Under the pieces are notes generated by a model that saw only the letters and a program-made list of their open reading frames with translations, had not been told where the DNA came from and made no database searches. A stretch of 32,000 bases of DNA from Acaryochloris marina MBIC11017 (GTDB lineage Bacteria > Cyanobacteriota > Cyanobacteriia > Thermosynechococcales > Thermosynechococcaceae), in contig NC_009926.1 in NCBI RefSeq assembly GCF_000018105.1, positions 210,001 to 242,000 on the forward strand. Direction: 5' to 3'. The position numbers were made by a program, and so were the translations under genes. Of the stretch, positions 10,901 to 32,000 are shown piece by piece; within the stretch, counting starts at the first letter, position 1, and each line of letters starts with the position of its first letter.

Positions 10901-13900
10901 TGGTCTGCCAGCCAGAACGACAGGTAGACAGTGGTGAGCTACGCAAATTCTTACGGGCGAAACTGCCAGACTACATGGTGCCTGCGACCTATATGACGCT
11001 GGAGGCTCTGCCCCTGACACCCAATGGCAAGGTCGATCGCAAGGCGCTACCTGCTCCTACACCGGAGTTGCGTATGATCGACGCTGATGCTAGTCCTGCA
11101 AGCCCAATTGAGGACATGCTGGCAGGGGTTTGGGCAGCAACTTTGGGGCTTGAGGGGGTGGGTCGCTACGACAACTTCTTTGAGTTGGGCGGACATTCTC
11201 TGCTGGCAACACAGGTTATGTCTCAGATACAGCGTTTGTTGCAAGTAGAGGTACCGTTGCGGTCGCTATTTGAATCACCCACCGTCGCACAGCTAGCGGA
11301 ACGGGTTGAGGCGGCAATCCAGACCGGAGCCTCCTTAAGTATCCCAGCTATCCAGTCCCGGTCGAATCGGGACGTTGCCCCCCTCTCATTTGCCCAAGAG
11401 CGCATGTGGTTTTTGGCTCAGCTTGAACCCGAAAACCCCTTTTACAATCTGCCGATTGCCGTCGCTCTGGACGGTTTGCTTGACCTCGATGCCTTGGAGC
11501 AAACTCTGACAGAGATTCTGCGTCGCCATCAGGGGCTACGCACCCGCATTGAGACTCGCGTAGGAGTTGCGATCGCTCGGATTGCAGATCCCGTTCCGTT
11601 CCCGCTACGGCGAGTTGATTTGAGCCAGTCCGCCAGCCTAGATCGAGAGCCTGAAATCCAGCGTTGGATTGACACCGCAGCCCGTCAACCCTTTGACCTC
11701 CAGCAGGATCTCCTCCTGCGAGCCACCGTACTTCGCCTGTCGGAGCAGGAGCATATTTTGCTGTTGACGCTGCATCACATTGCCGCTGATGCCTGGTCTT
11801 TCGGACTGCTGGCCAGTGAAATCAGCGCTCTCTATCCGGCTTTCTGTGACGGCAACCCCTCTCCCTTACCGGAACTACCGATTCAGTATGGCGACGTGGC
11901 GGTGTGGCAGCGACAGTGGCTACAAGGGAACGCCCTCCAAACGCAAATGGACTATTGGCGGCAGCAGCTACAGGATGCACCCGCGTTGCTGAACCTGCCC
12001 ACCGACTATCCCCGCCCCGCTGTCCAGACCTATCGAGGGGCACGCTACGGTTTTGAGCTTTCTGCCAGCCTGACGCGATCGCTACATCATCTCAGTCAGC
12101 AGGCAGGCTGCACTCTATTTATGACGCTGCTGGCCGCGTTCAAGCTGCTGCTGGGGCGCTACAGCAACAGTACCGATATCCTCGTGGGAACGCCCATTGC
12201 CAACCGCAATCGGGCTGAGGTTGAAGACCTGATTGGCTGTTTCGTGAATACGCTGGTGCTGCGAACGGATCTCTCCCATCAGCCAACGGTATTGAAACTA
12301 CTTGAGCGGGTGCGAGAGGTAGCTCTGGGAGCCTATGCCCATCAGGATTTGCCTTTCGAACAACTGGTAGACGGACTGCAACTAGGGCGATCGCTGAGTC
12401 ATACGCCGCTATTTCAGGTGATGTTTGTGCTGCAGAACACGCCGCTACCGCAGGTGACGCTGCCAAACCTCCAGATTCATCCGCTCGACACTGGGAGCGG
12501 TACTACTCAGTTTGATCTCACCCTTTCTCTGGAGGAAACGCCTGCCGGACTCACTGGCGTTATTGAGTATAACTGCGACTTGTTTGAGGAAGCGACCATT
12601 ACTCGGATGGCAGGACACTACCAAATGCTGCTGGACGGGTTTGTTGCCCATCCCCAGCGGCCTGTGGCAGAACTGCCCTGTTTGACAACTGCCGAGCAGC
12701 AGCAGCTAGTTGCTTGGAATCAAACCCAGGCCGTGTATTCACAGGATGCCTGTATTCACCATTTGTTTGAAGCCCAGGTTGAACGGATACCCGATGCGAT
12801 CGCAGTTGTTTTCCAGGATCAGCAGCTGACGTATGGGGAACTCAACCAGAGAGCCAATCAGTTGGCCCAGAAGTTGCGATCTCAGGGAGTACAGCCGGAT
12901 GTTCCTGTGGGCATTTGTGTGGAGCGCTCAATCGATATGCTGGTGGCGCTGCTAGGGGTACTGAAGGCAGGCGGCGCGTACCTGCCCCTCGATCCTACCT
13001 ATCCGTCTGAGCGGCTGGCGTTTATGCTGGACGATGCCCAAGTTAAGCATTTGGTTACTCAGTCCGCTCTGTGCGATCGTATTCCTCCCCATCAGGCACA
13101 AGTGGTTTATCTGGATAGACTTGCCACTGAAAACTCTCGACCGGATTCAGGCAATCCAATTCACTCACCGCAGACGGAAAATTTAGCCTATGTAATCTAT
13201 ACCTCCGGCTCTACGGGCAAGCCTAAAGGGGTGATGGTAAACCACCGCTCTCTAGTGAACTACACCGAAGCGATTGCTTCAGCCTATGTTCTGAAACCAA
13301 GCGATCGCGTCCTGCAATTTGCCTCTATCAACTTCGATGTGGCGGCAGAAGAAATCTTCCCGACGCTGGCGCAGGGAGGGACATTGGTCTTACGCACCGA
13401 TGAGATGCTCGATTCAATCCCCACCTTTTTACATCAGGTTCAAGCGTTAGAGTTGACGGTGCTCAACCTGCCCACCGCATTTTGGCATCAGTTCACGGCT
13501 GAACTCGACAGAATGTCAACGACTGTTCCGGATTCCCTACGGCTGGTGGTAATTGGTGGCGAACGCGCTCTAGCCGATCGCGTCCAAACCTGGCATCGAG
13601 TGGTGGGCGAACAGATTCGCCTCGTGAACTGCTACGGCCCAACCGAAGCAACTATCGGCGCAACGCTCTGTGATTTAACCGCCTATGCTCCAACTGAATG
13701 GGCGGGGAACGAATCGGGGGCAACCATCCTCAGTTCTAACGATGTCCCCATCGGCAAACCCATTCAGAACGTCCAAACCTACGTGCTCAACGCCGACTTG
13801 CAACCTGTCCCCATCGGCATTCCTGGCGAACTGTATATCGGTGGCGATGGTCTCGCACGCGGCTACTTGAATCGACCTGAGCTAACGGCAGAACGATTTG

Positions 13901-16071
13901 TTGATTTGAGATTGCCGATATCTAATTCAAAATTCAAAACTCAAAATTCAAAACTCTCCCCTTCGATTTGTTTATATAAAACGGGCGATCTTGTCCGCTA
14001 CCGCCCCGACGGTAATCTAGAGTATCTGGGCCGCATCGACCATCAGGTGAAGATGCGCGGCTTTCGGATTGAATTGGGTGAAATTGAAGCGGCATTGGGT
14101 CAGCATCCGGCGGTGCAGAATGCCGTGGTAGTTGACGACGAGACGGAACTGGGTACCCGCCGCTTGGTGGCTTATGGGGTAGCAATGCCCTATGCCGACC
14201 TGTCGATGCCTGAGTTGCGCCAGTTTTTGACAGAGAAACTACCGGCCTACATGGTGCCTGCGGTGTTTGTGCTTCTGGAAACTCTGCCACTGATGCCCAA
14301 TGGCAAGGTGAATCGCCAGGCACTGCCCGCTCCAGATGCCACCCAGGCGGAGTCTGACGCTACTGTGGCTTCCCCCCGAACACCGACTGAAATCACCTTG
14401 GCTGAGATTTGGGCGCAGGTGTTGTCAGTGACGCAGGTGGGCATTCACGACAACTTCTTTGAGTTGGGCGGCGATTCGATTCTCAGTCTCCAAGTGGTAG
14501 CCAGATCTCATCAAGCCGGACTACAATTCACGCCCAAACAGCTTTTTGAGCATCAGACCATTGCCGAATTGGCGATCGTTGCCCAGACGAAGCACGAAAC
14601 GGAGATTGAGCAGGGATTAGCCACGGGGTCTGTTGGGTTAACGCCTATCCAGCAGTGGTTCTTTGAGCAACAGTTGCCGGATCCCCATCACTTCAACCAA
14701 GCGGTACTTCTAGAAGTGCCGCAGCCACTCGACCCAGGGCTGCTGGAACAGGCAGTTCAACAGGTGCTCATTCACCACGATGCGCTCCGGCTGCGGTTCG
14801 AACCAATAGAGTCCAGCTGGCGGCAGGAATATGCTCCACCTGATTCAGCGCTACTTCTAATCAGGTGGGATTTCTCAACTCTGAGCAAGGCGGAGCAGCA
14901 GGCCGCCTTTGCTACTGCAGCCGCTGAACTCCACACCAGCCTTGACCTATCTAAGGGGCCGCTGCTGCGGGTGGGCTATTTTGATTGGGGAGATCACCTC
15001 TCGGATAGCCTACTGATTGTGATTCATCACTTGGTAGTGGACGGTGTATCCTGGCGCATCCTGCTGGAGGATTTGCAGACGGCCTACCAGCACCTCAGTC
15101 GAGGAGAAACGGTGCAGCTTCCCGCTAAAACGCTGTCGTTCCAGCAGTGGTCGCAGCAACTACAGCAGATGGCTCAAACGGTACTGGACTCATCAGAACC
15201 CGACTACTGGCTGGCACAGCAGTCTTCGACACCGCTGCCTGTGGATATAGTAGGTGCAGAAAAAGCAGGGGCGGAAAATACGGTTGCCTCAGCGGCTACG
15301 GTTCACTGCATCTTGAGCATGGCTGAGACTCAAGCTTTGCTCAAAGAAGTGCCGTCTGTCTACAACACTGAAATAAACGACGTGTTGCTGACTGCCTTAG
15401 TACAAACGTTAACGGCATGGGTTGAGCCTGATGCAGCTATCCATTCACCCACCTTCTTGATCGATCTCGAAGGCCACGGACGAGAGGGTATTACCGCAAA
15501 CCTCAACGTCTCACGCACGGTGGGCTGGTTCACCACCGTCTTTCCAGTGGCTCTAAGCCTTGACCCCAACGTCCATCCAGGCGAAGCGTTAAAGCAGGTC
15601 AAAGAACAACTGCGCCGCATTCCCCATCAAGGGCTCGGCTACAGGCTGCTGCGCTATCTCAGCGAGGAACCAAGCCTCACCGCAGCGTTGAAAAACCTCC
15701 CCCAAGCCAACATTCTGTTCAACTACTTAGGCCAGTTTGACTCTGCGCTGACGGACACTGCCCTATTTCGTCCGCTGTCGGAATCGGCAGGGCCAACTCA
15801 AAGTCCACGCGGTCAACGCAGCCACTGGCTGGAGATCAATTGCTGGGTGAGTGGCGGACAACTGCATCTGGACTGGATTTACAGTCAGGCGCTGCATCAA
15901 TCCAGCACGATGGAAACGCTGGCGCAGCAGTTTATGGAGACATTGCGATCGCTGATTGCCCACTGTCAATCTCCAGACGCAGGTGGCTATACCCCCTCTG
16001 ACTTTTCGGAAGCAGACTTGAGTCAAGATGACCTCGATCGCTTCCTAGCCCACCTCAATCGCAGGAGTTAG
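7912..16071 (+). CDS. NRPS, two modules plus epimerase: C-A(Gly)-T-C-A(unassigned)-T-E
   Basis: 2719-aa ORF. Motifs, in order: SFAQQRLWFL, HHIIFDGWS, LAYVIYTSGSTGKPKGV, FFELGGHSLLAT, SFAQERMWFL, HHIAADAWS, LAYVIYTSGSTGKPKGV, FFELGGDSILSL. E-domain motifs follow: PIQQWFF, HHLVVDGVSW, EGHGRE, RTVGWFT and FNYLGQ. Confidence 0.95.
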   Translation: MTSELNRDEKRKALRSRLSPAQRAQLDQRLRGDRSSAVNVNAIPRRSTTSPSPLSFAQQRLWFLQQLEPGQAFYNEHAALRLAGELNLAALEHSLNALVERHEVFRTRFDIVHGQPVQVIIPHLALSLAQADLQTVPAADQAEVVQRLSREQSHEPFNLEQAPLLRWLLIWLDEQDYVLLFTIHHIIFDGWSIDILMRELSSFYTTFSAADDSDSSNVLPELPIQYTEYALWQRQWLQGDVLQAQLDYWRRQLAQAPPLLNLPSDRPRPAIQTYRGKAQTFQLSQPMAQALKDLSRQTGLTLFMTLLTSFKILLHRYTEQTDLIVGSPVANRNRAEVEGLIGVFVNSLVLRTDLSGNPTVAELMQRVRRVLLGAYANSELPFEKLVEELQPERDTHSNPLFQVSFTLHNTPRQAVELSGLTLTPVEVSRDRALLDLRLDMTETEQGLTGCWEYSTDLFDDDRIERMSGHYQKLLEMMVANQAQHIADLSLLTESEFHQLMQWNQTQADYPQDRCLSELFATQVEQTPDAIALIFEDQHLTYAELNARANQLAHYLQTLGVKPDDLVGICCDRSLDMMIGLLGILKSGGAYVPIDPDYPSDRLAWMMSDAHLAILLTQRSLTDQLPPHQAQVVELDGDWQTIAQQPRHNLANLATADHLAYVIYTSGSTGKPKGVQITHRSLVNFLCSMHKQPGLTADDTLLAITSISFDIAALELYLPLITGAKVVVASRTVAADGEQLSELLSRTGATIMQATPATWRMLLTAGWSGQAGLKMLCGGEALSGDLAQQLMNMGTSVWNLYGPTETTIWSTIYPVKNQPHNHTDSEVPFTKGDLGGSIPIGHPIANTQIYLLDRHGQPVPVGVPGELHIGGDGLARGYLNRPELTAERFIDFGLPIADFGLEPDSQIPPKSEIVRLSAHDEVQNPKSVRLYKTGDLARYRPDGSIEYLGRLDHQVKIRGFRIELGEIEAVLRQHSDVHEVVAISRPDLFGESQLVAYLVCQPERQVDSGELRKFLRAKLPDYMVPATYMTLEALPLTPNGKVDRKALPAPTPELRMIDADASPASPIEDMLAGVWAATLGLEGVGRYDNFFELGGHSLLATQVMSQIQRLLQVEVPLRSLFESPTVAQLAERVEAAIQTGASLSIPAIQSRSNRDVAPLSFAQERMWFLAQLEPENPFYNLPIAVALDGLLDLDALEQTLTEILRRHQGLRTRIETRVGVAIARIADPVPFPLRRVDLSQSASLDREPEIQRWIDTAARQPFDLQQDLLLRATVLRLSEQEHILLLTLHHIAADAWSFGLLASEISALYPAFCDGNPSPLPELPIQYGDVAVWQRQWLQGNALQTQMDYWRQQLQDAPALLNLPTDYPRPAVQTYRGARYGFELSASLTRSLHHLSQQAGCTLFMTLLAAFKLLLGRYSNSTDILVGTPIANRNRAEVEDLIGCFVNTLVLRTDLSHQPTVLKLLERVREVALGAYAHQDLPFEQLVDGLQLGRSLSHTPLFQVMFVLQNTPLPQVTLPNLQIHPLDTGSGTTQFDLTLSLEETPAGLTGVIEYNCDLFEEATITRMAGHYQMLLDGFVAHPQRPVAELPCLTTAEQQQLVAWNQTQAVYSQDACIHHLFEAQVERIPDAIAVVFQDQQLTYGELNQRANQLAQKLRSQGVQPDVPVGICVERSIDMLVALLGVLKAGGAYLPLDPTYPSERLAFMLDDAQVKHLVTQSALCDRIPPHQAQVVYLDRLATENSRPDSGNPIHSPQTENLAYVIYTSGSTGKPKGVMVNHRSLVNYTEAIASAYVLKPSDRVLQFASINFDVAAEEIFPTLAQGGTLVLRTDEMLDSIPTFLHQVQALELTVLNLPTAFWHQFTAELDRMSTTVPDSLRLVVIGGERALADRVQTWHRVVGEQIRLVNCYGPTEATIGATLCDLTAYAPTEWAGNESGATILSSNDVPIGKPIQNVQTYVLNADLQPVPIGIPGELYIGGDGLARGYLNRPELTAERFVDLRLPISNSKFKTQNSKLSPSICLYKTGDLVRYRPDGNLEYLGRIDHQVKMRGFRIELGEIEAALGQHPAVQNAVVVDDETELGTRRLVAYGVAMPYADLSMPELRQFLTEKLPAYMVPAVFVLLETLPLMPNGKVNRQALPAPDATQAESDATVASPRTPTEITLAEIWAQVLSVTQVGIHDNFFELGGDSILSLQVVARSHQAGLQFTPKQLFEHQTIAELAIVAQTKHETEIEQGLATGSVGLTPIQQWFFEQQLPDPHHFNQAVLLEVPQPLDPGLLEQAVQQVLIHHDALRLRFEPIESSWRQEYAPPDSALLLIRWDFSTLSKAEQQAAFATAAAELHTSLDLSKGPLLRVGYFDWGDHLSDSLLIVIHHLVVDGVSWRILLEDLQTAYQHLSRGETVQLPAKTLSFQQWSQQLQQMAQTVLDSSEPDYWLAQQSSTPLPVDIVGAEKAGAENTVASAATVHCILSMAETQALLKEVPSVYNTEINDVLLTALVQTLTAWVEPDAAIHSPTFLIDLEGHGREGITANLNVSRTVGWFTTVFPVALSLDPNVHPGEALKQVKEQLRRIPHQGLGYRLLRYLSEEPSLTAALKNLPQANILFNYLGQFDSALTDTALFRPLSESAGPTQSPRGQRSHWLEINCWVSGGQLHLDWIYSQALHQSSTMETLAQQFMETLRSLIAHCQSPDAGGYTPSDFSEADLSQDDLDRFLAHLNRRS
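8065..9351 (+). other. Condensation domain (accepts the ACP-bound polyketide-thiazole acyl chain)
   Basis: PLSFAQQRLWFLQQLEP, RHEVFRTRF, HHIIFDGWS, IQYTEYALWQ, IGVFVNSLVLR, ELPFEKLV. Confidence 0.88.
9439..11052 (+). other. Adenylation domain, glycine code DILQLGLIWK
   Basis: The code comes from FDIAALE / MQATPAT / LCGGEA / WNLYGPTETTIW aligned by hand to GrsA. The domain lies inside the perfect repeat 9313-11057. Confidence 0.85.
10576..10695 (+). repeat. In-frame MITE-like palindromic insert in the A6-A7 loop (encodes IDFGLPIADFGLEPDSQIPPKSEIVRLSAHDEVQNPKSVR)
   Basis: GATTTTGGATT at 10579-10589 and again at 10600-10610. The perfect reverse complement AATCCAAAATC is at 10678-10688, and TCCAAAATC is at 10632-10640. 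The paralogous A domain at 22946-24463 lacks the segment. Confidence 0.7.
11098..11301 (+). other. Thiolation domain
   Basis: YDNFFELGGHSLLATQV, with the Ser codon TCT at 11197-11199. Confidence 0.9.
11377..12666 (+). other. Condensation domain (LCL-like), C3 motif variant HHIAADAWS
   Basis: PLSFAQERMWFLAQLEP, RHQGLRTRI, HHIAADAWS (11773-11796), IQYGDVAVWQ, IGCFVNTLVLR, HQDLPFEQLV. Confidence 0.88.
12739..14331 (+). other. Adenylation domain, specificity unassigned (hand-derived code DVENVGCIGK)
   Basis: The code comes from FDVAAEE / LNLPTAF / VIGGER / NCYGPTEATIG. The acidic residue at position 239 hints at a polar or cationic substrate, but I do not recognise the code. Confidence 0.8.
13903..13971 (+). 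repeat. Shorter, diverged in-frame insert at the same A6-A7 position (DLRLPISNSKFKTQNSKLSPSIC)
   Basis: GATTTGAGATTGCC resembles GATTTTGGATTGCC. It is followed by AATTCAAAATTCAAAACTCAAAATTCAAAACTC, an A-rich 7-nt periodic tract. Confidence 0.6.
14374..14577 (+). other. Thiolation domain of the E-partner type (GGDSI)
   Basis: HDNFFELGGDSILSLQV. The GGDSI variant is characteristic of carrier domains that feed E domains. Confidence 0.88.
14623..15981 (+). other. Epimerization domain, followed by a COM-donor-like tail (about 15990-16068)
   Basis: LTPIQQWFFEQ, HHLVVDGVSWRIL, DLEGHGREG, SRTVGWFTTVFPV, PHQGLGYRLLRYL, LFNYLGQFD. The tail is GGYTPSDFSEADLSQDDLDRFLAHL. Confidence 0.9.
16063..16067 (+). 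promoter_or_regulatory. Shine-Dalgarno-like AGGAG for the stand-alone C gene
   Basis: AGGAG lies 9 nt upstream of ATG 16077, inside the last codons of the preceding gene. Confidence 0.6.
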
Positions 16072-25600: not shown

Positions 25601-28093
25601 CCGATTGCCAACCGCAACCGGGCTGAAACCGAGAGACTGATTGGCCTGTTCGTCAACACCCTGGTGCTGCGGACGGATCTGTCGGATAACCCCAACGTTA
25701 CCGAACTCTTGAGCCGCGTCCGAGAGGTAGCCCTGGGAGCCTATGCTCATCAGGATTTACCCTTTGAGCAGTTAGTAGAAGAATTGCAGCCTGAGCGATC
25801 GCTGAGCTATTCTCCCCTCTTTCAAGTAATGTTCGTGTTGCAAAACGCTCCATTCTCACAGGTTGATCTGCCAGAATTGACCCTGACCCCGCTGGAGAGC
25901 GATAGCGGCACAACGCAGTTTGACCTCATCCTCTCACTGACAGAAACGGATGCAGGTCTGATGGGCACGGTGGAATATGACACGGATCTATTTGGGGTAG
26001 GGACGATCGCCCGTCTAGTCGGCCATTACCAGAAACTACTGGAGATGATGGTAGCTAATCAAGCCCAGCACATTGCAGATCTGTCCCTCCTGACTGAATC
26101 TGAGTTCCACCAGTTGATGCAATGGAATCAGACACAGGCTGACTATCCCCAAGATCGGTGTTTATCTGAGCTGTTCGCCACCCAGGTTGAACAAACGCCA
26201 GATGCGATTGCACTCATCTTCGAAGACCAACACTTGACCTATGCCGAACTCAATGCCCGAGCTAATCAACTCGCTCACTATCTGCAAACCCTAGGGGTGA
26301 AGCCAGATGATTTGGTGGGAATTTGTTGCGATCGCAGCCTCGACATGATGATTGGACTGCTGGGCATCCTCAAATCGGGAGGAGCCTATGTGCCGATTGA
26401 TCCGGACTACCCGAGCGATCGCTTGGCCTGGATGATGAGTGATGCCCACCTAGCGATTCTGCTCACCCAACGCTCTCTAACGGATCAGCTACCTCCCCAT
26501 CAGGCTCAGGTCGTTGAACTGGATGGGGATTGGCAGACAATTGCCCAGCAACCCCGACACAATCTCGCTAATCTGGCTACGGCAGACCACCTCGCCTACG
26601 TCATCTACACCTCCGGTTCAACAGGCAAGCCTAAGGGGGTGCAGATTACTCACCGCAGTCTGGTTAATTTCCTCTGCTCGATGCACAAACAGCCCGGTTT
26701 AACTGCGGATGACACATTACTGGCTATCACCTCGATTTCCTTTGATATCGCGGCACTGGAACTGTATCTTCCCCTGATTACCGGGGCAAAGGTCGTCGTC
26801 GCTAGTCGTACAGTAGCCGCCGATGGCGAACAACTCAGTGAACTGCTTAGCCGCACAGGCGCAACCATTATGCAGGCCACCCCCGCCACCTGGCGGATGC
26901 TGCTGACCGCAGGCTGGTCTGGACAAGCCGGACTAAAAATGCTCTGTGGCGGTGAAGCCCTGAGTGGCGATCTGGCTCAGCAGTTAATGAACATGGGAAC
27001 TTCCGTCTGGAATCTCTATGGCCCCACCGAAACCACCATCTGGTCTACGATTTATCCAGTAAAGAACCAGCCACACAATCACACCGACTCCGAAGTCCCC
27101 TTTACCAAGGGGGATTTAGGGGGATCAATCCCTATCGGCCACCCCATCGCCAACACCCAAATCTATCTCCTCGATCGCCACGGACAGCCTGTGCCTGTCG
27201 GCGTTCCCGGTGAACTGCACATCGGCGGCGACGGACTCGCACGGGGCTACCTGAATCGACCTGAGCTAACGGCAGAACGATTTATTGATTTTGGATTGCC
27301 AATTGCCGATTTTGGATTAGAGCCAGACTCACAAATCCCTCCAAAATCCGAAATCGTTCGACTGAGCGCTCACGACGAAGTCCAAAATCCAAAATCCGTT
27401 CGTTTATACAAAACTGGCGACCTCGCCCGCTACCGTCCGGATGGCTCAATCGAGTATCTAGGTCGCCTGGATCATCAGGTGAAAATTCGCGGCTTCCGGA
27501 TTGAACTGGGGGAAATTGAAGCCGTCTTGCGTCAGCATTCAGATGTCCATGAGGTGGTCGCGATCTCCCGTCCCGACTTATTCGGAGAGTCGCAGTTAGT
27601 GGCCTATTTGGTCTGCCAGCCAGAACGACAGGTAGACAGTGGTGAGCTACGCAAATTCTTACGGGCGAAACTGCCAGACTACATGGTGCCTGCGACCTAT
27701 ATGACGCTGGAGGCTCTGCCCCTGACACCCAATGGCAAGGTCGATCGCAAGGCGCTACCTGCTCCCGACCTATCCCGGACGCAGGATGAAATCGTCCCAC
27801 CCCGCAGCCACACCGAAGCGACATTGGCTACCCTCTATACCGAAATTCTTGGGGTAGAGATAATCAGTGTCCATGACAACTTTTTTGAACTGGGGGGACA
27901 TTCGTTACTTGCTACCCGCCTCACCTCCCGTCTGCGCGAAACCTTTGAACTGGAGCTCTCTCTGCGTAGCCTGTTTGAAAAACCGACCATTGCTGAACTG
28001 GCAGAACACATCGACGTTCTCCGGTTGGCGATTGCCCAAGCCCCCATCCCTGCTACTACAACCGAACCGGGTCGAAAGGAAATTGAACTATGA
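18845..28093 (+). CDS. NRPS, three modules: [C-terminal-lobe C remnant]-A(Dab-like)-T-C-A(Gly)-T-C-A(Gly)-T
   Basis: 3082-aa ORF. Motifs, in order: [151 protein letters not shown]. The TGA stop overlaps the next ATG (ATGA at 28090-28093). Confidence 0.95.
   Translation: [3082 protein letters not shown]
19667..21265 (+). other. Adenylation domain, hand-derived code DIWEMTADDK (closest to my recollection of a Dab code, DIWELTAD..)
   Basis: The code comes from SSDISVWQ / VELVPVV / MVTGED / [11 protein letters not shown]. This A domain is the most divergent in the cluster, and its N-terminal core is visibly AT-richer. Confidence 0.8.
21311..21514 (+). other. Thiolation domain
   Basis: [18 protein letters not shown]. 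Confidence 0.9.
21584..22864 (+). other. Condensation domain (LCL-like)
   Basis: [65 protein letters not shown]. Confidence 0.88.
22310..22570 (+). repeat. Near-identical tract shared by two C domains (partner 25511-25771)
   Basis: I saw about 8 mismatches in about 260 nt. Identity falls off on both sides. The tract encodes [86 protein letters not shown]. Confidence 0.75.
22946..24463 (+). other. Adenylation domain, glycine code DILQLGLIWK; paralogue lacking the A6-A7 insert
   Basis: FDIAALE / MQATPAT / LCGGEA / [12 protein letters not shown]. The A6-A7 segment is short ([27 protein letters not shown]). Confidence 0.85.
24116..24460 (+). repeat. A-domain C-terminal-subdomain tract about 96% identical to 10708-11052 and 27416-27760
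   Basis: I saw about a dozen mismatches in about 345 nt. Identity starts right after the insert site (GGCGACCTCGCCCGCTACCG...). Confidence 0.75.
24506..24718 (+). other. Thiolation domain
   Basis: [18 protein letters not shown]. Confidence 0.9.
24794..26059 (+). other. Condensation domain (LCL-like)
   Basis: [65 protein letters not shown]. Confidence 0.88.
25511..25771 (+). repeat. Partner of the 22310-22570 tract (offset +3,201)
   Basis: As for the partner tract. Confidence 0.75.
26147..27760 (+). other. Adenylation domain, glycine; nucleotide-identical copy of 9439-11052
   Basis: It lies inside the perfect repeat 26021-27765. Confidence 0.88.
27284..27403 (+). repeat. Identical second copy of the in-frame palindromic insert
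   Basis: It is part of the perfect repeat. The inverted-repeat arms are at 27287-27297 and 27386-27396. Confidence 0.7.
27812..28012 (+). other. Thiolation domain
   Basis: [18 protein letters not shown]. Confidence 0.9.
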
Positions 28094-28284
28094 AACCGAT
28101 TGAATCATTCTTATCCGATCTGTATCGCCTAGATGTCAAACTGTGGGTCGAAGGGACCGATGACAAACGTCAGGACGGCTCAGAACAGACTCGACTGCGC
28201 TGCAATGCTCCAGAGGACATTCTGACTGCCGACCTCAGCGCCCAGATCTCGGCTCGTAAAGCTGAAATCATTGCCTTTCTCAAT
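28090..28284 (+). other. TubC-like N-terminal NRPS docking domain
   Basis: [22 protein letters not shown]...[30 protein letters not shown] matches the xxLLxxLxxxGVxLWxEGdxLRxxAPxGxLtxxLrxxLxxhKxElixxL pattern as I remember it. Confidence 0.7.
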
Positions 28285-31200
28285 CAGGCTCATGCCGCCT
28301 CCCATTTGTCCCTTCCCGAGATACAAGCGATCGCCCGTCCAGAGCATGTATCGTTATCGTTTGCGCAGCAGCGGCTGTGGTTTCTCGATCAGATGGAACC
28401 CAATAGTCCGCTCTACAACATTCCAGCAGCGGCTCGTTTAACGGGTACCCTGGATGCGATCGCACTCGATCAAAGCTTCAATGCCATCGTGCAGCGACAT
28501 GAGAGTTTACGAACGGCCTTTCAAGCCGTAGATGGTCAGCCCGTTCAGATGATTGTGCCCGAATTAACCGTGCCTCTACAGCGTGTTGACCTCAGTACCC
28601 TTGACAAAGCGGAGCAGGAAGTTCGAGTGCTGCAACTTGCCCAGCAAGAGGCTCAGCAGCCGTTTGACCTCACCCAGGCACCACTGCTGCGAGTCACTCT
28701 GATCCGGCTAACGGATACTGAGCATGTGGTGCTGTTGACGATGCACCATATCATCTCGGATGCCTGGTCAATGGATATTTTGCTGCAGGAGTTAACCGCT
28801 CTGTATGGGGCGTTTTCAGCTGGACAGCCGTCTCCTTTATCAGAGCTGTCGATTCAGTATGCTGACCTTGCGGTCTGGCAGCGCCAATGGTTGCAGGGGG
28901 AGGTGCTAGAGCGGCATCTATCCTATTGGCACCAGCAGTTGGGTGGAAACCTGCCGATTTTGCAACTGCCCAGCGATCGCCCCCGTCCTCGCGTTCAAAG
29001 CTTCCGGGGAGCCAAGCACACCTTTACACTTTCGGCTGAGCTGACGGCAGCCCTCAAAGCCTTGAGCCAGCAAGCAGGTGTCACCCTATTCATGACTCTG
29101 CTGGCCTCGTTCAAGGTACTGCTCCATCGCTACACCGGGCAGGCAGATTTGTTGGTCGGTTCCCCCATCGCCAACCGCAATCGCTCTGAAATTGAGGGGC
29201 TGATCGGATTCTTTGTGAATACCCTGGTGCTGCGGAGTAACCTGGCCGACAACCCGACCTTTCGTGAGCTGTTGCAGCAAGTGCAGCAGACGACTCTAGC
29301 GGCCTATGAACATCAAGATCTGCCGTTTGAAAAACTAGTGGAAGAGTTGCAACCGGAGCGAGACCTCAGTTACAGTCCACTATTTCAGGTCAAGTTTGCG
29401 CTTGAAAATGCACCTACAAGCGATCTCAATCTTGCTGACTTGACAATGAGCTTTCTTCAGTTCGAAAGTTCGACGGCCAAGCTCGATTTGAGTTTGGACA
29501 TGAGCGAAGAGGTGTCTGACACTGGGGCGGCTCGTTTAGGAGGTACCTTCGAGTACAGTACCGATTTATTTGACAAAGCAACGATTCAGGCAATGGCCGA
29601 ACATTTCCAGTGCTTACTGACTGGCATCGTTGCCCATCCCGATCAGTGCATCTCTGACCTGCCGTTGCTAACAGAAGCCGAGCGGTATCAGCAGTTCGTG
29701 ACCTGGAACGATACTCAGGTTGAGTATGCTCAGGACGAATGCTTTCATCAGCGATTTGAAGCTCAGGTTGAACAAACACCCAATGCGATCGCACTCGTTT
29801 TTCAAGATGAGCAGCTCACCTATGCTGAACTGAATCGGCAGTCCAACCAGCTTGCCTACTATCTGCAAAACCAAGGCGTGAAACCTGAGGTTGTAGTAGG
29901 GCTGTGCGTAGAGCGATCACCTGCCATGATCTTGGGACTGCTCGGCATTCTCAAAGCCGGAGGTGCCTATCTGCCGCTTGACCCCACCTATCCGCCTGAG
30001 CGGCTGGCTTTTATGCTGGCGGATGCGCAAGTGCCGCTGCTGGTGACGACCTCCACCTCAGCGACCCATCTGCCTAACCCTACCGCCCAGGTGATCAAGT
30101 TGGATGCCGATTGGCCGACCATTTCTCAGGAACCGGAACACAATCCCAGCAGTGCGGTTACGGTCGAAAACCTAGCCTACTTGATCTATACCTCCGGCTC
30201 AACTGGCACACCGAAGGGCGTTTTGGTGCCCCATGCCGGATTGGTCAATCTAACCGACGACAAGATTCGCACCTGCCAGGTGCGCCCCGATAGTCGCGTC
30301 CTGCAATTTTTCTCGCTCAGCTTCGATGCATCCGTTCCCGAAATTGTCATGAGTTTGGGTTGTGGTGCTGCCCTCCATCTAGCTCCCCCAGAGGATTTGC
30401 TACCAGGGCCGGGACTCCTAAAGCTACTGCGAGAACAGGCCATCACCCACATCACCGCACCACCCTCTGCCCTGACCGCATTACCACCAGCAGACTTACC
30501 CGCGCTGCAGATGGTGTTGGTGGGCGGCGAAGCGCCATCGCCGGAACTGATTGCCCAGTGGTCAAAAGGACGACTGTTCATCAACGCCTATGGCCCCACT
30601 GAAACCACCGTCAACGCCAGCATGGTGCCTTGTGAGGCTGGAGCAGAACCAACCCTGCGACCAGCGGCCAACAAGCAGCTCTATATCCTTGATCGCCATC
30701 TCCAACTCTTGCCCATTGGCGTACCGGGCGAATTGTATATCGGTGGCATCGGCCTAGCACGAGGCTATCTCAATCGGCCTGAAAAAACGGCAGCAGCCTT
30801 TGTGGATTTTGGATTGCCGCTTTTCGATGCTGGATTAGATACGGGTCAGTTATTATCTCCAAACTCCAAAATCCCTAGCGCAGCGCAGCAGAGCCATGCC
30901 TTTGAGGCTATAAATCCAGAATCAACTCGTTTATACAAAACCGGCGACCTAGCCTGCTACCGCCGTGACGGTCATATCAAGCTGCTGGGGCGGCTAGATC
31001 ATCAGGTGAAGATTCGAGGCTTTCGGATTGAATTGGGCGAAATTGAAGCCCGCCTGGCTCAACATCCGGCGGTTCAGGAGAGTGTGGTGATTGTACGCGA
31101 AGATCAACCGGGCGAACGCCGCTTGGTGGCCTATGTTGCAACCAGCTCAGACCCAGCACCCACCACCAGTGAGCTACACCGTTTTGTCGCTAAAACCCTG

Positions 31201-32000
31201 CCCAAATACATGGTGCCTGCGGTCTTCGTGCGACTAGAGGCTCTCCCGCTCAATCCAAATGGCAAAGTCGATCGGCAGGCGCTACCCGCACCGGATACGT
31301 TGCGGCCTGCCCTGGCCGAGACCTTTGTGGCTCCCCGTAATTCGACTGAGACTTGCCTGGTTCAGGTGTTTGCTGACGTGCTTGAGGTCAAGCAAGTGGG
31401 AGTTCACGATGACTTCTTTGAGTTGGGGGGGCACTCTCTGCTAGCCACTAAGCTGATTGCTCGGTTGTTGAAAGATTTTCAAATCGAGTTGGCGATCGCA
31501 GATTTGTTCGAGTCCCCCACGGTTGCCGGTTTGGCTGAACGCATTGAGTCGCTGCGGCAGGCATCTGGTTCTCAATCAGCCTCCCAGGAGGCTACCCATC
31601 AAACTATCGCAGCGTTCCTCAAAGCTGAAGCCGTCCTCGACCCCACCATTCGCCCAGCACCCGGATCGAGTCGGGCGATCGCTCCAGCCTGTGGCATCTT
31701 CTTAACTGGAGCCACCGGATTTCTTGGCGCTTTTCTACTCGCGGAACTGCTGCAACAAACCACTGCCAAAATCTATTGTTTGGTTCGCTCACACTCGCAA
31801 GCATCAGCCCAACACAAGCTGCAAGCTAGCCTGACATCCTATCAGCTCTGGCATGATGCCTGGCAATCTCGCATTATTCCCATCGTTGGCGATTTAGCTC
31901 AACCCCGTTTAGGCCTCACTGAATCGCAGTTTCAGGCTCTGGCTCGTGATGCTGACATGATTTACCACAGTGGCGCATGGGTACACCATGCCTCGCCCTA
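28090..32000 (+). CDS. NRPS termination module, 3'-truncated by the window edge: TubC-type docking-C-A-T-R (thioester reductase)
   Basis: This ORF is missing from the supplied track because no stop occurs before nt 32000. I translated frame 1 from ATG 28090 and found no stop in 1303 codons. Translation begins [22 protein letters not shown]. Later motifs are [121 protein letters not shown] and MIYHSGAW. Confidence 0.93.
   Translation, partial: [1303 protein letters not shown]
28345..29634 (+). other. Condensation domain (LCL-like), C3 variant HHIISDAWS
   Basis: [35 protein letters not shown] (28744-28767), [31 protein letters not shown]. Confidence 0.88.
29722..31290 (+). other. Adenylation domain, specificity unassigned (hand-derived code DAPTLGAVNK)
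   Basis: The code comes from FDASVPE / ITAPPSA / LVGGEA / [11 protein letters not shown]. The domain carries a diverged copy of the A6-A7 insert. Confidence 0.8.
30802..30930 (+). repeat. Diverged in-frame insert at the same A6-A7 position ([43 protein letters not shown])
   Basis: GATTTTGGATTGCC is at the 5' end. It continues ...CTCCAAACTCCAAAATCCCT...AAATCCAGAATCAACTCGTTTATACAAAAC, collinear with the 10576-10695 element. Confidence 0.6.
31336..31539 (+). other. Thiolation domain
   Basis: [18 protein letters not shown]. Confidence 0.9.
31687..32000 (+). other. Terminal thioester reductase (R/TD) domain, N-terminal part only
   Basis: The Rossmann motif is [19 protein letters not shown]. It is followed by [19 protein letters not shown] and [13 protein letters not shown]. 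The domain is truncated by the window end. Confidence 0.85.

Follow-up and report, generated by a model that had tools for sequence, protein, structure and literature searches.

A terminal thioester reductase domain as the probable release point of a Dmaq-type siderophore assembly line in a cyanobacterium

Results and Discussion

The thioester reductase (R) domain at the end of the 32,000-nt stretch of DNA analysed here (the window, C2:210001–242000) is probably the chain-releasing end of a salicylate-primed PKS/NRPS line of about 62 kb that builds a Dmaq-type siderophore, with the released aldehyde being passed to enzymes encoded beside it. The line sits on a 374-kb contig, probably a plasmid, of a cyanobacterium, an origin indicated by the best homologues. 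Its likely product is a Dmaq-tailed peptide siderophore of the salicyl-thiazoline/thiazole kind, in which the linker Gly, D-Xaa, Dab, Gly, Gly would connect a yersiniabactin/lusichelin-like salicyl-thiazoline-thiazole head with a Dmaq tail of the anachelin type. The guess of an aldehyde warhead or imine made in the initial annotation thereby becomes a specific and testable prediction.

The last module and its reductase domain

The first 3911 nt of the last NRPS gene were located in the window (28090..32000, + strand) from the ORF list, the translation, and Pfam matches. Extension of the contig past the window end gave the whole gene, which encodes a protein of 1573 aa with the Pfam architecture TubC dock-C-A-T-R and has its stop codon at C2:242811 (L009:4812), 811 nt beyond the window. 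The condensation domain (aa 85–533; 28342..29688, +) matched PF00668 with an E-value of 4e-125 and carries a ten-residue motif, the adenylation domain (aa 556–1059; 29755..31266, +) was assigned the pocket code DAPTLGAVNK from Pfam and alignments, and the carrier domain (aa 1090–1152; 31357..31545, +) was recognized by PF00550 and by the Ser in its FFELGGHSL motif. Directly after this PP-binding domain, the R domain of this final module begins at aa 1205; its N-terminal 99 aa are encoded in the window (31702..32000, +) and it continues to about aa 1570, as judged from PF07993, TIGR01746, and an alignment with MxaA. An R domain with a GATGFLG motif, rather than a thioesterase (TE), had been placed at the end of the line from the window alone, and the extended contig confirmed that the domain is real and complete. 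The stop codon is followed by 15 kb in which no TE, NRPS module, or PKS module was found, in agreement with the earlier view that the line ends here.

The GATGFLG sequence is encoded at window positions 31708–31728 (codons 1207–1213 of the ORF starting at 28090) and belongs to an 11-residue NAD(P)H-binding TGxxGxxG motif (aa 1205–1215, window 31702–31734). The part of the domain inside the window (residues 1205–1302) matched Pfam NAD_binding_4 (PF07993) with an E-value of 1.7e-32, and the full-length domain matched it with an E-value of 3.1e-70 (236.7 bits, profile positions 1–258 of 258). The full-length domain also scored 381.9 bits against TIGR01746, 'thioester reductase domain' (profile positions 2–370 of 371), for which the curated cut-off is 213.35 bits. 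Reductive release, as originally proposed, is thus supported by an R domain that is terminal and passes curated cut-offs. Its best solved relative is the R domain of the myxalamid synthase MxaA (PDB 4u7w; E 1.4e-92), and the R region of the myxochelin synthetase MxcG ranks second among its NCBIfam matches, at 296 bits and below the NRPS_MxcG equivalog cut-off. The catalytic Tyr and Lys that had been sought beyond the window are present as YxxxK: GGYNQSKW aligns with GGYAQSKW of MxaA, and both residues are kept in eight of eight R orthologues, with L016 having the variant GGYNQCKW. The domain has the TGxxGxxG and GGYxQSKW motifs and the C-terminal substrate subdomain in common with MxaA and differs from it at the canonical triad column, where the Thr of MxaA (VSTVSV) is replaced by Ala1369 (MSATSV), flanked by Ser1368 (−1) and Thr1370 (+1). 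Among the aligned R orthologues this column and its neighbours read SAT, SAS, STA, STT, or SST.

As a member of this family, the R domain would use NAD(P)H to reduce the peptidyl thioester to a C-terminal aldehyde. MxaA carries out a four-electron reduction and its product is an alcohol; over-reduction of this kind would bypass the aminotransferase described below, and the main product would then end in a primary alcohol (tyrosinol or DOPA-ol), with the amine and Dmaq as a minor branch (cf. myxochelin A versus B). The closest solved relative being alcohol-forming argues for this outcome, as does the strong similarity to the R region of MxcG, whose aldehyde is transaminated by MxcL in a pathway that yields both alcohol and amine. 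However, sequence does not separate two- from four-electron R domains, the linkage to genes for an aminotransferase, a methyltransferase, and a hydroxylase has been conserved, which speaks for selection of the amine branch, and both anachelin and fabrubactin bear Dmaq rather than an alcohol (PMC6562677, PMC12971057). An alcohol as the main product is therefore considered unlikely.

Genes following the reductase domain

Inspection of the extended contig for tailoring genes, suggested in the initial annotation, uncovered a methyltransferase, a class-III aminotransferase, and a haem hydroxylase-like gene pair. The SAM methyltransferase gene (299 aa) starts 24 nt past the NRPS stop codon. The aminotransferase (491 aa) lies 1.5 kb beyond it, on the far side of an ISAzo13-like element whose transposase is spread over two frames. 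Its PLP-lysine motif, YGKVVGGG, is intact, and the enzyme is similar to GSA aminomutases and to the guanitoxin transaminase GntE. Two small ORFs follow, orf154 and then orf200. The product of orf200 matches the C-terminal half (residues 181–362) of the haem 3-methyl-Tyr peroxygenase SfmD (E 3.5e-13), and its relatives, which carry PF27188, are mostly cyanobacterial and in many cases named 'siderophore biosynthesis protein'. The conserved upstream neighbour of orf200 in six loci is orf154, which had no detectable similarity to any solved protein; a profile of seven homologues searched against the PDB returned noise (E at least 0.14), so that the reading of the pair as two halves of SfmD rests on orf200 and synteny. 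Genes for a salicylate synthase, a ligase, a carrier, and PPTases lie downstream of this cassette, MFS and Suc_Fer-like genes are also at the locus, and the same contig encodes five TonB-dependent receptors.

From this gene set we infer the chemical steps, which residue the last A domain accepts, and in which order hydroxylation and loading occur. The terminal A domain is predicted to accept Tyr or DOPA; a literature search found no characterized A domain with the code DAPTLGAVNK. Once Tyr or DOPA had been loaded by the last module and the chain released, the C-terminal aldehyde would be converted to a primary amine by the dedicated class-III aminotransferase, and the amine would be N,N-dimethylated by the adjacent SAM methyltransferase. 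The catechol would come from a two-protein FbnL/FbnM-type haem hydroxylase, and oxidative aza-annulation would close the ring to the Dmaq tetrahydroquinolinium chelator, in line with the proposal for anachelin and the report on fabrubactin. The aldehyde would therefore be an intermediate and not the product. To our knowledge, Dmaq is known from two compound families alone, the anachelins and the fabrubactins, and we know of no reconstitution of the steps after reductive release for the cyanobacterial version. Calteau 2014 assigned Red, MT, AmT, and TyrH to Dmaq (PMC4247773), the assignment of the anachelin cluster being itself bioinformatic, and Reitz et al. (PMC12971057) describe FbnL/FbnM as a haem peroxidase of two proteins with which Dmaq synthesis begins. 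Both papers credit this very gene set with turning a C-terminal Tyr/DOPA into the chelator Dmaq.

The position of the ISAzo13-like element between the methyltransferase and the aminotransferase operon could uncouple their expression. Another transposase gene is found between those for the type II TE and the AraC regulator, and the Dab module described below begins with an orphan half of a C domain. Together these features are compatible with a decaying locus, in which insertion sequences at both ends and in the middle would have silenced or uncoupled the line, leaving no finished product. Against such decay, which we regard as quite improbable, both insertion sequences are in intergenic DNA, and every biosynthetic ORF examined is uninterrupted and of full length, its catalytic motifs intact.

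Conservation of the release cassette in cyanobacteria

An R homologue was found in seven other cyanobacterial loci, and in all seven the R domain, the aminotransferase, and orf200 or orf154 occur in the same order; four of the seven also have the methyltransferase. The syntenic R, aminotransferase, and small-ORF genes are 39–66% identical to those described here in these loci, which include Anabaena cylindrica. The domain identities, the gene order, and the retention of the cassette beside the R domain are direct observations. The pocket code DAPTLGAVNK is identical in six of the seven loci, including both from Anabaena, and the alignment shows that Hyella and two MAG orthologues share it. Identity to the locus of A. 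cylindrica UHCC 0172 (L012) is 63% for the NRPS, 57% for the methyltransferase, 65% for the aminotransferase, 49% and 63% for the small ORFs, 50% for the MFS protein, and 51% for the Suc_Fer-like protein. Further along, L012 encodes a binding protein and a TonB receptor, as does the published anachelin cluster of A. cylindrica PCC 7122; it has a single module between the PKS and the R module and is therefore not the PCC 7122 cluster as published. Most of the seven loci have no Dab module in view.

The R domain, the aminotransferase, and the hydroxylase pair encoded by two ORFs evidently travel together, passing as one block from one assembly line to another of quite different build. Although no new principle is involved, such a cassette is of use in mining genomes and in engineering peptides that end in an amine. 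As a separate observation, marine relatives have an R domain that is detached and fused to a CmlA-type hydroxylase.

The upstream line and the Dab side chain

Upstream of the last gene, the line comprises two Cys heterocyclization modules (one with an oxidase), one fully reducing and one KR-only PKS module, and then modules for Gly, a D-residue, Dab, Gly, and Gly; KSIII-ACP and Cy-A-T are also upstream. The N-terminus had been assumed to be blocked by a thiazole-polyketide acyl group; that it is capped holds, but the cap is most likely salicylate rather than the thiazole-polyketide portion alone. A TE search of the genome gave a single strong match (163 bits), a free-standing type II enzyme of 255 aa at C2:192298–192966, about 46 kb upstream, and two chromosomal matches of about 24–26 bits.

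The two-module NRPS that incorporates Gly and then a residue with the code DVENVGCIGK ends in an epimerization (E) domain (14629..16071, +), for which the nearest solved structures are the E domains of PvdL, TycB3, GrsA, and TycA. It is followed by a free-standing C domain (16077..17525, +), assigned by Pfam and its nearest solved relatives to the post-E (DCL) type; these relatives are the C domains of McyB, PvdL, BacC, TycB, and SrfA-C, which we take to be located behind E domains. Next comes an EctB/PvdH-type diaminobutyrate–2-oxoglutarate transaminase (17461..18762, +) for Dab supply, which scored 552.8 bits with TIGR02407 (cut-off 552.2) and 600 bits with NF006733 (cut-off 438). The three-module NRPS after it (18845..28093, +) was resolved, using Pfam, pocket codes, an alignment of the PvdL pocket, and an analysis of the N-terminal lobe, into A(Dab)-T-C-A(Gly)-T-C-A(Gly)-T preceded by an orphan C-terminal C-domain lobe, and it would feed Dab-Gly-Gly to the last module. 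In a phmmer alignment to the PvdL structure, the pocket of the Dab A domain (J_A1) reads DIWEMTADDK, where that of the PvdL Dab domain reads DIWELTADDK (nine of ten positions identical). A literature search for the latter code found nothing, and a comparison of the whole domain with the PDB was uninformative, with LgrA as the top match. The Dab-Gly-Gly-Xaa end proposed initially is nonetheless well founded in the upstream EctB-type gene, the PvdL-like pocket, and the two Gly codes that follow.

On this basis, the initial annotation had the R domain release a stable peptide aldehyde, either final or trapped by the gamma-amine of Dab in a 14-membered cyclic imine running from side chain to tail. 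Our recount of the ring size under its assumptions agrees. The terminal R domain with no TE downstream and the predicted Dab-Gly-Gly-Xaa end are in keeping with this scheme, aldehyde processing might be inefficient where the insertion sequence splits the aminotransferase operon from the NRPS-methyltransferase unit, and nostocyclopeptide is a precedent for imine macrocyclization after reductive release. However, an aldehyde end product is at odds with the conservation of an aldehyde-consuming aminotransferase and an amine methyltransferase beside the R domain, in loci that mostly show no Dab module, and with an A-domain pocket identical to that of the Anabaena Dmaq-type module. Nor is there support for the Dab gamma-amine as the only nucleophile to meet the aldehyde; the aminotransferase and at least one ORF of the small pair are conserved with the R domain in seven other loci. 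That this amine is free was itself an assumption: in pyoverdine, a D-residue followed by Dab forms a tetrahydropyrimidine (PMC9569983), and by analogy the Dab gamma-amine may be consumed elsewhere here, for example in such a ring. A stable aldehyde or its imine is therefore very unlikely, and we give the least credence of all to the cyclic imine as a real product or major shunt, for example through uncoupling of aldehyde processing by the insertion sequence. If it did form, it would represent a siderophore closed into a macrocycle through an imine and bearing a salicyl-thiazoline/thiazole head.

The E domain, free C domain, and A(Dab) were also considered as a specific copy of PvdL modules 3 and 4. 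This was rejected: the E domain has PvdL as its best solved match, but the free C domain is closer to that of McyB and looks like a generic post-E domain, for which reason the tetrahydropyrimidine is kept only as a possibility.

Comparison with known systems

A close counterpart of the predicted Dmaq siderophore line is the anachelin cluster of A. cylindrica PCC 7122 (PMC4247773), compared here through L012. In both, the terminal dock-C-A-T-R protein with its pocket code precedes a methyltransferase, a class-III aminotransferase, and a pair of small ORFs; further common features are a salicylate starter, KSIII-ACP, and genes of the MFS and Suc_Fer/thioredoxin-like kinds. Upstream the two differ, anachelin having Ser-derived Atha with Thr, D-Ser, and L-Ser in place of the two Cys, two PKS, Gly, D-residue, Dab, Gly, and Gly units, and the anachelin-type cassette is interrupted by an insertion sequence here. 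The fbn cluster for fabrubactin in Agrobacterium fabrum C58 (Vinnik 2021, as cited in PMC12971057) likewise has an adjacent pair of small genes, one of them SfmD-related, tied, as is predicted here, to reductive release and amine formation, whereas the phylum and the remaining scaffold differ.

Other lines share single elements with this one. Myxochelin MxcG (C-A-T-R), acting with MxcL, has a terminal R domain and the same logic of aldehyde to amine by a class-III aminotransferase, but the released residue is Lys and no methylation or catechol-quinolinium formation is known. Nostocyclopeptide NcpB also pairs a terminal R domain in a cyanobacterial NRPS with a possible intramolecular amine; there, however, it is the free N-terminal alpha-amine and no aldehyde-processing genes are known to follow, whereas at the present locus the N-terminus is blocked and genes for an aminotransferase and a methyltransferase lie behind the R domain. 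The leptochelin paper contains nothing on reductive release. The starter set of fatuamide (fat) and lusichelin (lus) is common to this locus and consists of a carrier, PPTases, a benzoate-CoA-ligase-type enzyme, a salicylate synthase, KSIII-ACP, and Cy-A(Cys)-T. Both of these lines terminate in a TE or a C domain, lack the Dmaq cassette, and have different peptide parts; lusichelin also shares the Cys-Ox thiazole module, the AraC regulator, the type II TE, and the MFS gene with this locus.

A reductase domain at the end of the assembly line

The window spans C2:210001–242000, and the contig was extended past its end to recover the complete last NRPS, a 1573-residue protein starting at window position 28090, for which Pfam searches gave TubC-type docking, C, A, T and thioester reductase (R) domains. 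The GATGFLG motif (window 31708–31728, codons 1207–1213) is in frame with this ORF. NAD_binding_4 begins at residue 1205 (E 1.7e-32 for the in-window portion), and in the full-length protein profile positions 1–258 of 258 are covered (E 3.1e-70). Against TIGR01746, 'thioester reductase domain' (cut-off 213.35 bits), the last 404 residues reach 381.9 bits, and the solved MxaA reductase (4u7w) matches the R domain with E 1.4e-92. The stop codon lies 811 nt beyond the window end, and no thioesterase (TE) or further module, which the initial annotation had named as evidence against its reading, was found after it in the downstream flank (L009, C2:238000–257999). Because neither follows, the initial observation that an R domain rather than a TE ends the line is confirmed. 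A genome-wide search gave only one strong thioesterase match, to a free-standing type II enzyme at the upstream cluster edge (PF00975, 163 bits; L010:2226–2993 in the upstream flank, C2:190001–210000; C2:192298–192966), ~46 kb upstream; two further matches, on the chromosome, are weak (~24–26 bits). A free-standing type II TE is also present in the fatuamide and lusichelin clusters.

Of the catalytic triad, also put forward for checking, the SDR-type Tyr and Lys are kept (GGYNQSKW, aligned to GGYAQSKW of MxaA). The canonical Thr column, within VSTVSV in MxaA, is Ala in the MSATSV of this protein (aa 1366–1373, L009:4150–4175, beyond the window end), with Ser at −1 and Thr at +1. Among eight orthologues this site varies (SAT, SAS, STA, STT or SST) around an invariant Ser at −1; five have Ala in the canonical column, with Thr or Ser at +1. 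A Thr/Ser-Tyr-Lys triad has been reported in all NRPS R domains (review, PMC10510592). Judged from the alignment, the catalytic hydroxyl of this R domain may be shifted from the canonical column.

Module order and predicted peptide

Modules were ordered using Pfam domains, pocket residues and matches to solved structures. The line starts with KSIII-ACP followed by dock-Cy-A(Cys-like)-T, and proceeds through a PKS segment (KS-AT-KR-DH, then ER-ACP), an oxidase module (Cy-A(Cys, DLYNLSLIWK)-Ox-T), a further PKS module (KS-AT-KR-ACP) and a two-module NRPS, C-A(Gly)-T-C-A(DVENVGCIGK)-T-E. Next come a free-standing C domain of the post-E kind, an EctB-type transaminase, the Dab (diaminobutyrate) protein, with an orphan C-lobe and then A(DIWEMTADDK)-T-C-A(Gly)-T-C-A(Gly)-T, and the final module, dock-C-A(DAPTLGAVNK)-T-R. 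No specificity could be matched to the DVENVGCIGK pocket (second A domain of the two-module NRPS, window 13200–14600); its residue, preceding Dab, is predicted to be epimerised because an E domain follows. Within 20 kb, no gene for N-hydroxylation of ornithine or lysine was seen.

The transaminase exceeds the cut-offs of both the ectoine-EctB equivalog (552.8, cut-off 552.2) and the Dab-transaminase subfamily model (600, cut-off 438). In the structure-match alignment, the DIWEMTADDK pocket differs at 1 of 10 positions from that of the last PvdL A domain, which loads L-Dab (PMC9569983). Since these two features point to Dab and two Gly modules follow, the predicted Dab-Gly-Gly-Xaa segment is supported.

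For the first ~270 aa of the Dab protein (window 18845–19650), the matches are confined to the C-terminal lobe of C domains, and there is no HHxxxDG motif; just upstream are the ectB-like gene and an entire free-standing C domain. The lobe looks like either a remnant of a rearrangement that inserted ectB or a docking platform. The last A domain carries a ~45-aa insert between core motifs (window 30760–30900, aa about 890–940) that is absent in all seven orthologues; inserts related to it are present in three further A domains of the cluster (two Gly, one DVENVGCIGK).

Genes downstream of the reductase and their conservation

A SAM methyltransferase (299 aa) begins 24 nt past the last NRPS stop. 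The spacer between it and a class-III aminotransferase (491 aa), 154 nt in Anabaena cylindrica, is occupied by an ISAzo13-like element (L009:5806–7022, minus strand) whose transposase is divided between frames of 183 aa and 212 aa; this insertion could break the link between the NRPS genes and the operon for tailoring and starter enzymes. After the aminotransferase come orf154 (154 aa), orf200 (200 aa), an 87-aa carrier protein, AcpS-type PPTases, a benzoate-CoA-ligase-type enzyme, a salicylate synthase-like chorismate-binding enzyme, a Suc_Fer-like protein, an MFS exporter and ParA/ParB (L009:17156–18939). The starter genes correspond to those in the fatuamide and lusichelin clusters; by this analogy, the chain very probably carries a salicylate cap and starts as a hydroxyphenyl-thiazoline.

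The aminotransferase has an intact PLP-lysine motif and is nearest to glutamate-semialdehyde aminomutases and the guanitoxin biosynthesis transaminase GntE, which aminates an aldehyde. orf200 aligns with residues 181–362 of the haem enzyme SfmD (3-methyl-L-tyrosine peroxygenase, 365 aa; E 3.5e-13). Its relatives fall into at least 170 protein clusters, mostly cyanobacterial where named; the listed relatives contain PF27188 and are in many cases annotated as 'siderophore biosynthesis protein'. orf154 matched no solved protein, either as a single sequence or as a profile.

Searching species-representative genomes with the last NRPS, and for neighbouring genes by tblastn, resulted in seven cyanobacterial loci with R-domain homologues (52–62% identity): Anabaena sp. 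WFMT, A. cylindrica UHCC 0172, Symploca sp. SIO2E9, Hyella patelloides, two marine MAGs and one Aphanothece MAG. The aminotransferase and/or small ORFs lie directly downstream of R in conserved order in 7/7, and the methyltransferase is present in 4/7. The ten-residue pocket of the last A domain is identical in six of the seven. Identities to A. cylindrica UHCC 0172 are 63% for the full-length NRPS, 57% for the methyltransferase, 65% for the aminotransferase, 49% and 63% for the small ORFs, 50% for MFS and 51% for Suc_Fer-like; further along that locus are genes for a TonB-dependent receptor and a periplasmic binding protein.

A proposed Dmaq-type pathway and its alternatives

A cluster in A. 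cylindrica PCC 7122 (Calteau et al.) comprises KSIII-ACP, salicylate synthase, ligase, Cy-A-T, PKSs and NRPSs, and its 'Red, MT, AmT, TyrH' genes were assigned to the anachelin Dmaq unit, a catechol tetrahydroquinolinium chelator tail (PMC4247773). In the chemical scheme set out in a review (PMC6562677), a dopamine-like diamine is formed from a C-terminal Tyr, and oxidation with aza-annulation converts it to the tetrahydroquinolinium. According to Reitz et al., Dmaq biosynthesis has been established for the fabrubactins, in which the two-protein haem peroxidase FbnL/FbnM, their genome-mining marker, converts L-Tyr to L-DOPA as the first step (PMC12971057).

From domain identity, gene order and co-inheritance we infer each chemical step. 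The R domain would release a peptidyl aldehyde as a pathway intermediate, which the aminotransferase would convert to an amine for N-dimethylation by the methyltransferase; the orf154/orf200 pair would supply the catechol, and oxidation would close the Dmaq ring. The weak points are the IS between methyltransferase and aminotransferase, orf154 without a solved match, Ala at the Thr column, and the closest solved R domain, that of MxaA, which reduces all the way to the alcohol. The R region further resembles that of MxcG (296 bits), whose aldehyde partitions between an alcohol (myxochelin A) and an MxcL-made amine (myxochelin B), and this R domain may likewise yield a mixture.

The initial interpretation, a peptide aldehyde or cyclic imine formed through the Dab gamma-amine, is partly supported. 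A recount agrees with its 14-atom ring. As the product, however, the imine is disfavoured by the co-conservation of aldehyde-consuming enzymes with the R domain, which extends to loci without a Dab module in view, and by the orthology of the last module, pocket included, to a Dmaq-type module; as a shunt it is possible. Nor need the gamma-amine be free. In pyoverdine, Dab after a D-residue forms a tetrahydropyrimidine (PMC9569983), and here an E domain and a post-E-type C domain precede the Dab module; because McyB, not PvdL, is the nearer relative of this free-standing C domain, a tetrahydropyrimidine is only a possibility. The locus as a whole is of a known kind, with a Dmaq-type reductive-release cassette joined to a salicyl-thiazoline/thiazole, Gly, D-Xaa, Dab, Gly, Gly scaffold that had not been described before.

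In Symploca, Hyella and one marine MAG, the orthologous R is separate from the NRPS (L013:17042–20140, L014:4710–7859 and L015:17265–20318), in ~1030-aa fusions of a CmlA-type diiron beta-hydroxylase, a TubC docking domain and R, suggesting a trans-acting reductase and a cassette variant with beta-hydroxylated Tyr/DOPA. A further locus (L016:8182–11268) has an R-bearing ORF of like length (1028 aa).

At the upstream edge, a DDE transposase (L010:3746–4939) lies between the type II thioesterase and the AraC regulator and KSIII-ACP. Contig C2 is 374 kb and carries five TonB-dependent receptor genes (at about 137, 152, 167, 177 and 276 kb), and this siderophore cluster is probably located on an iron-acquisition megaplasmid.
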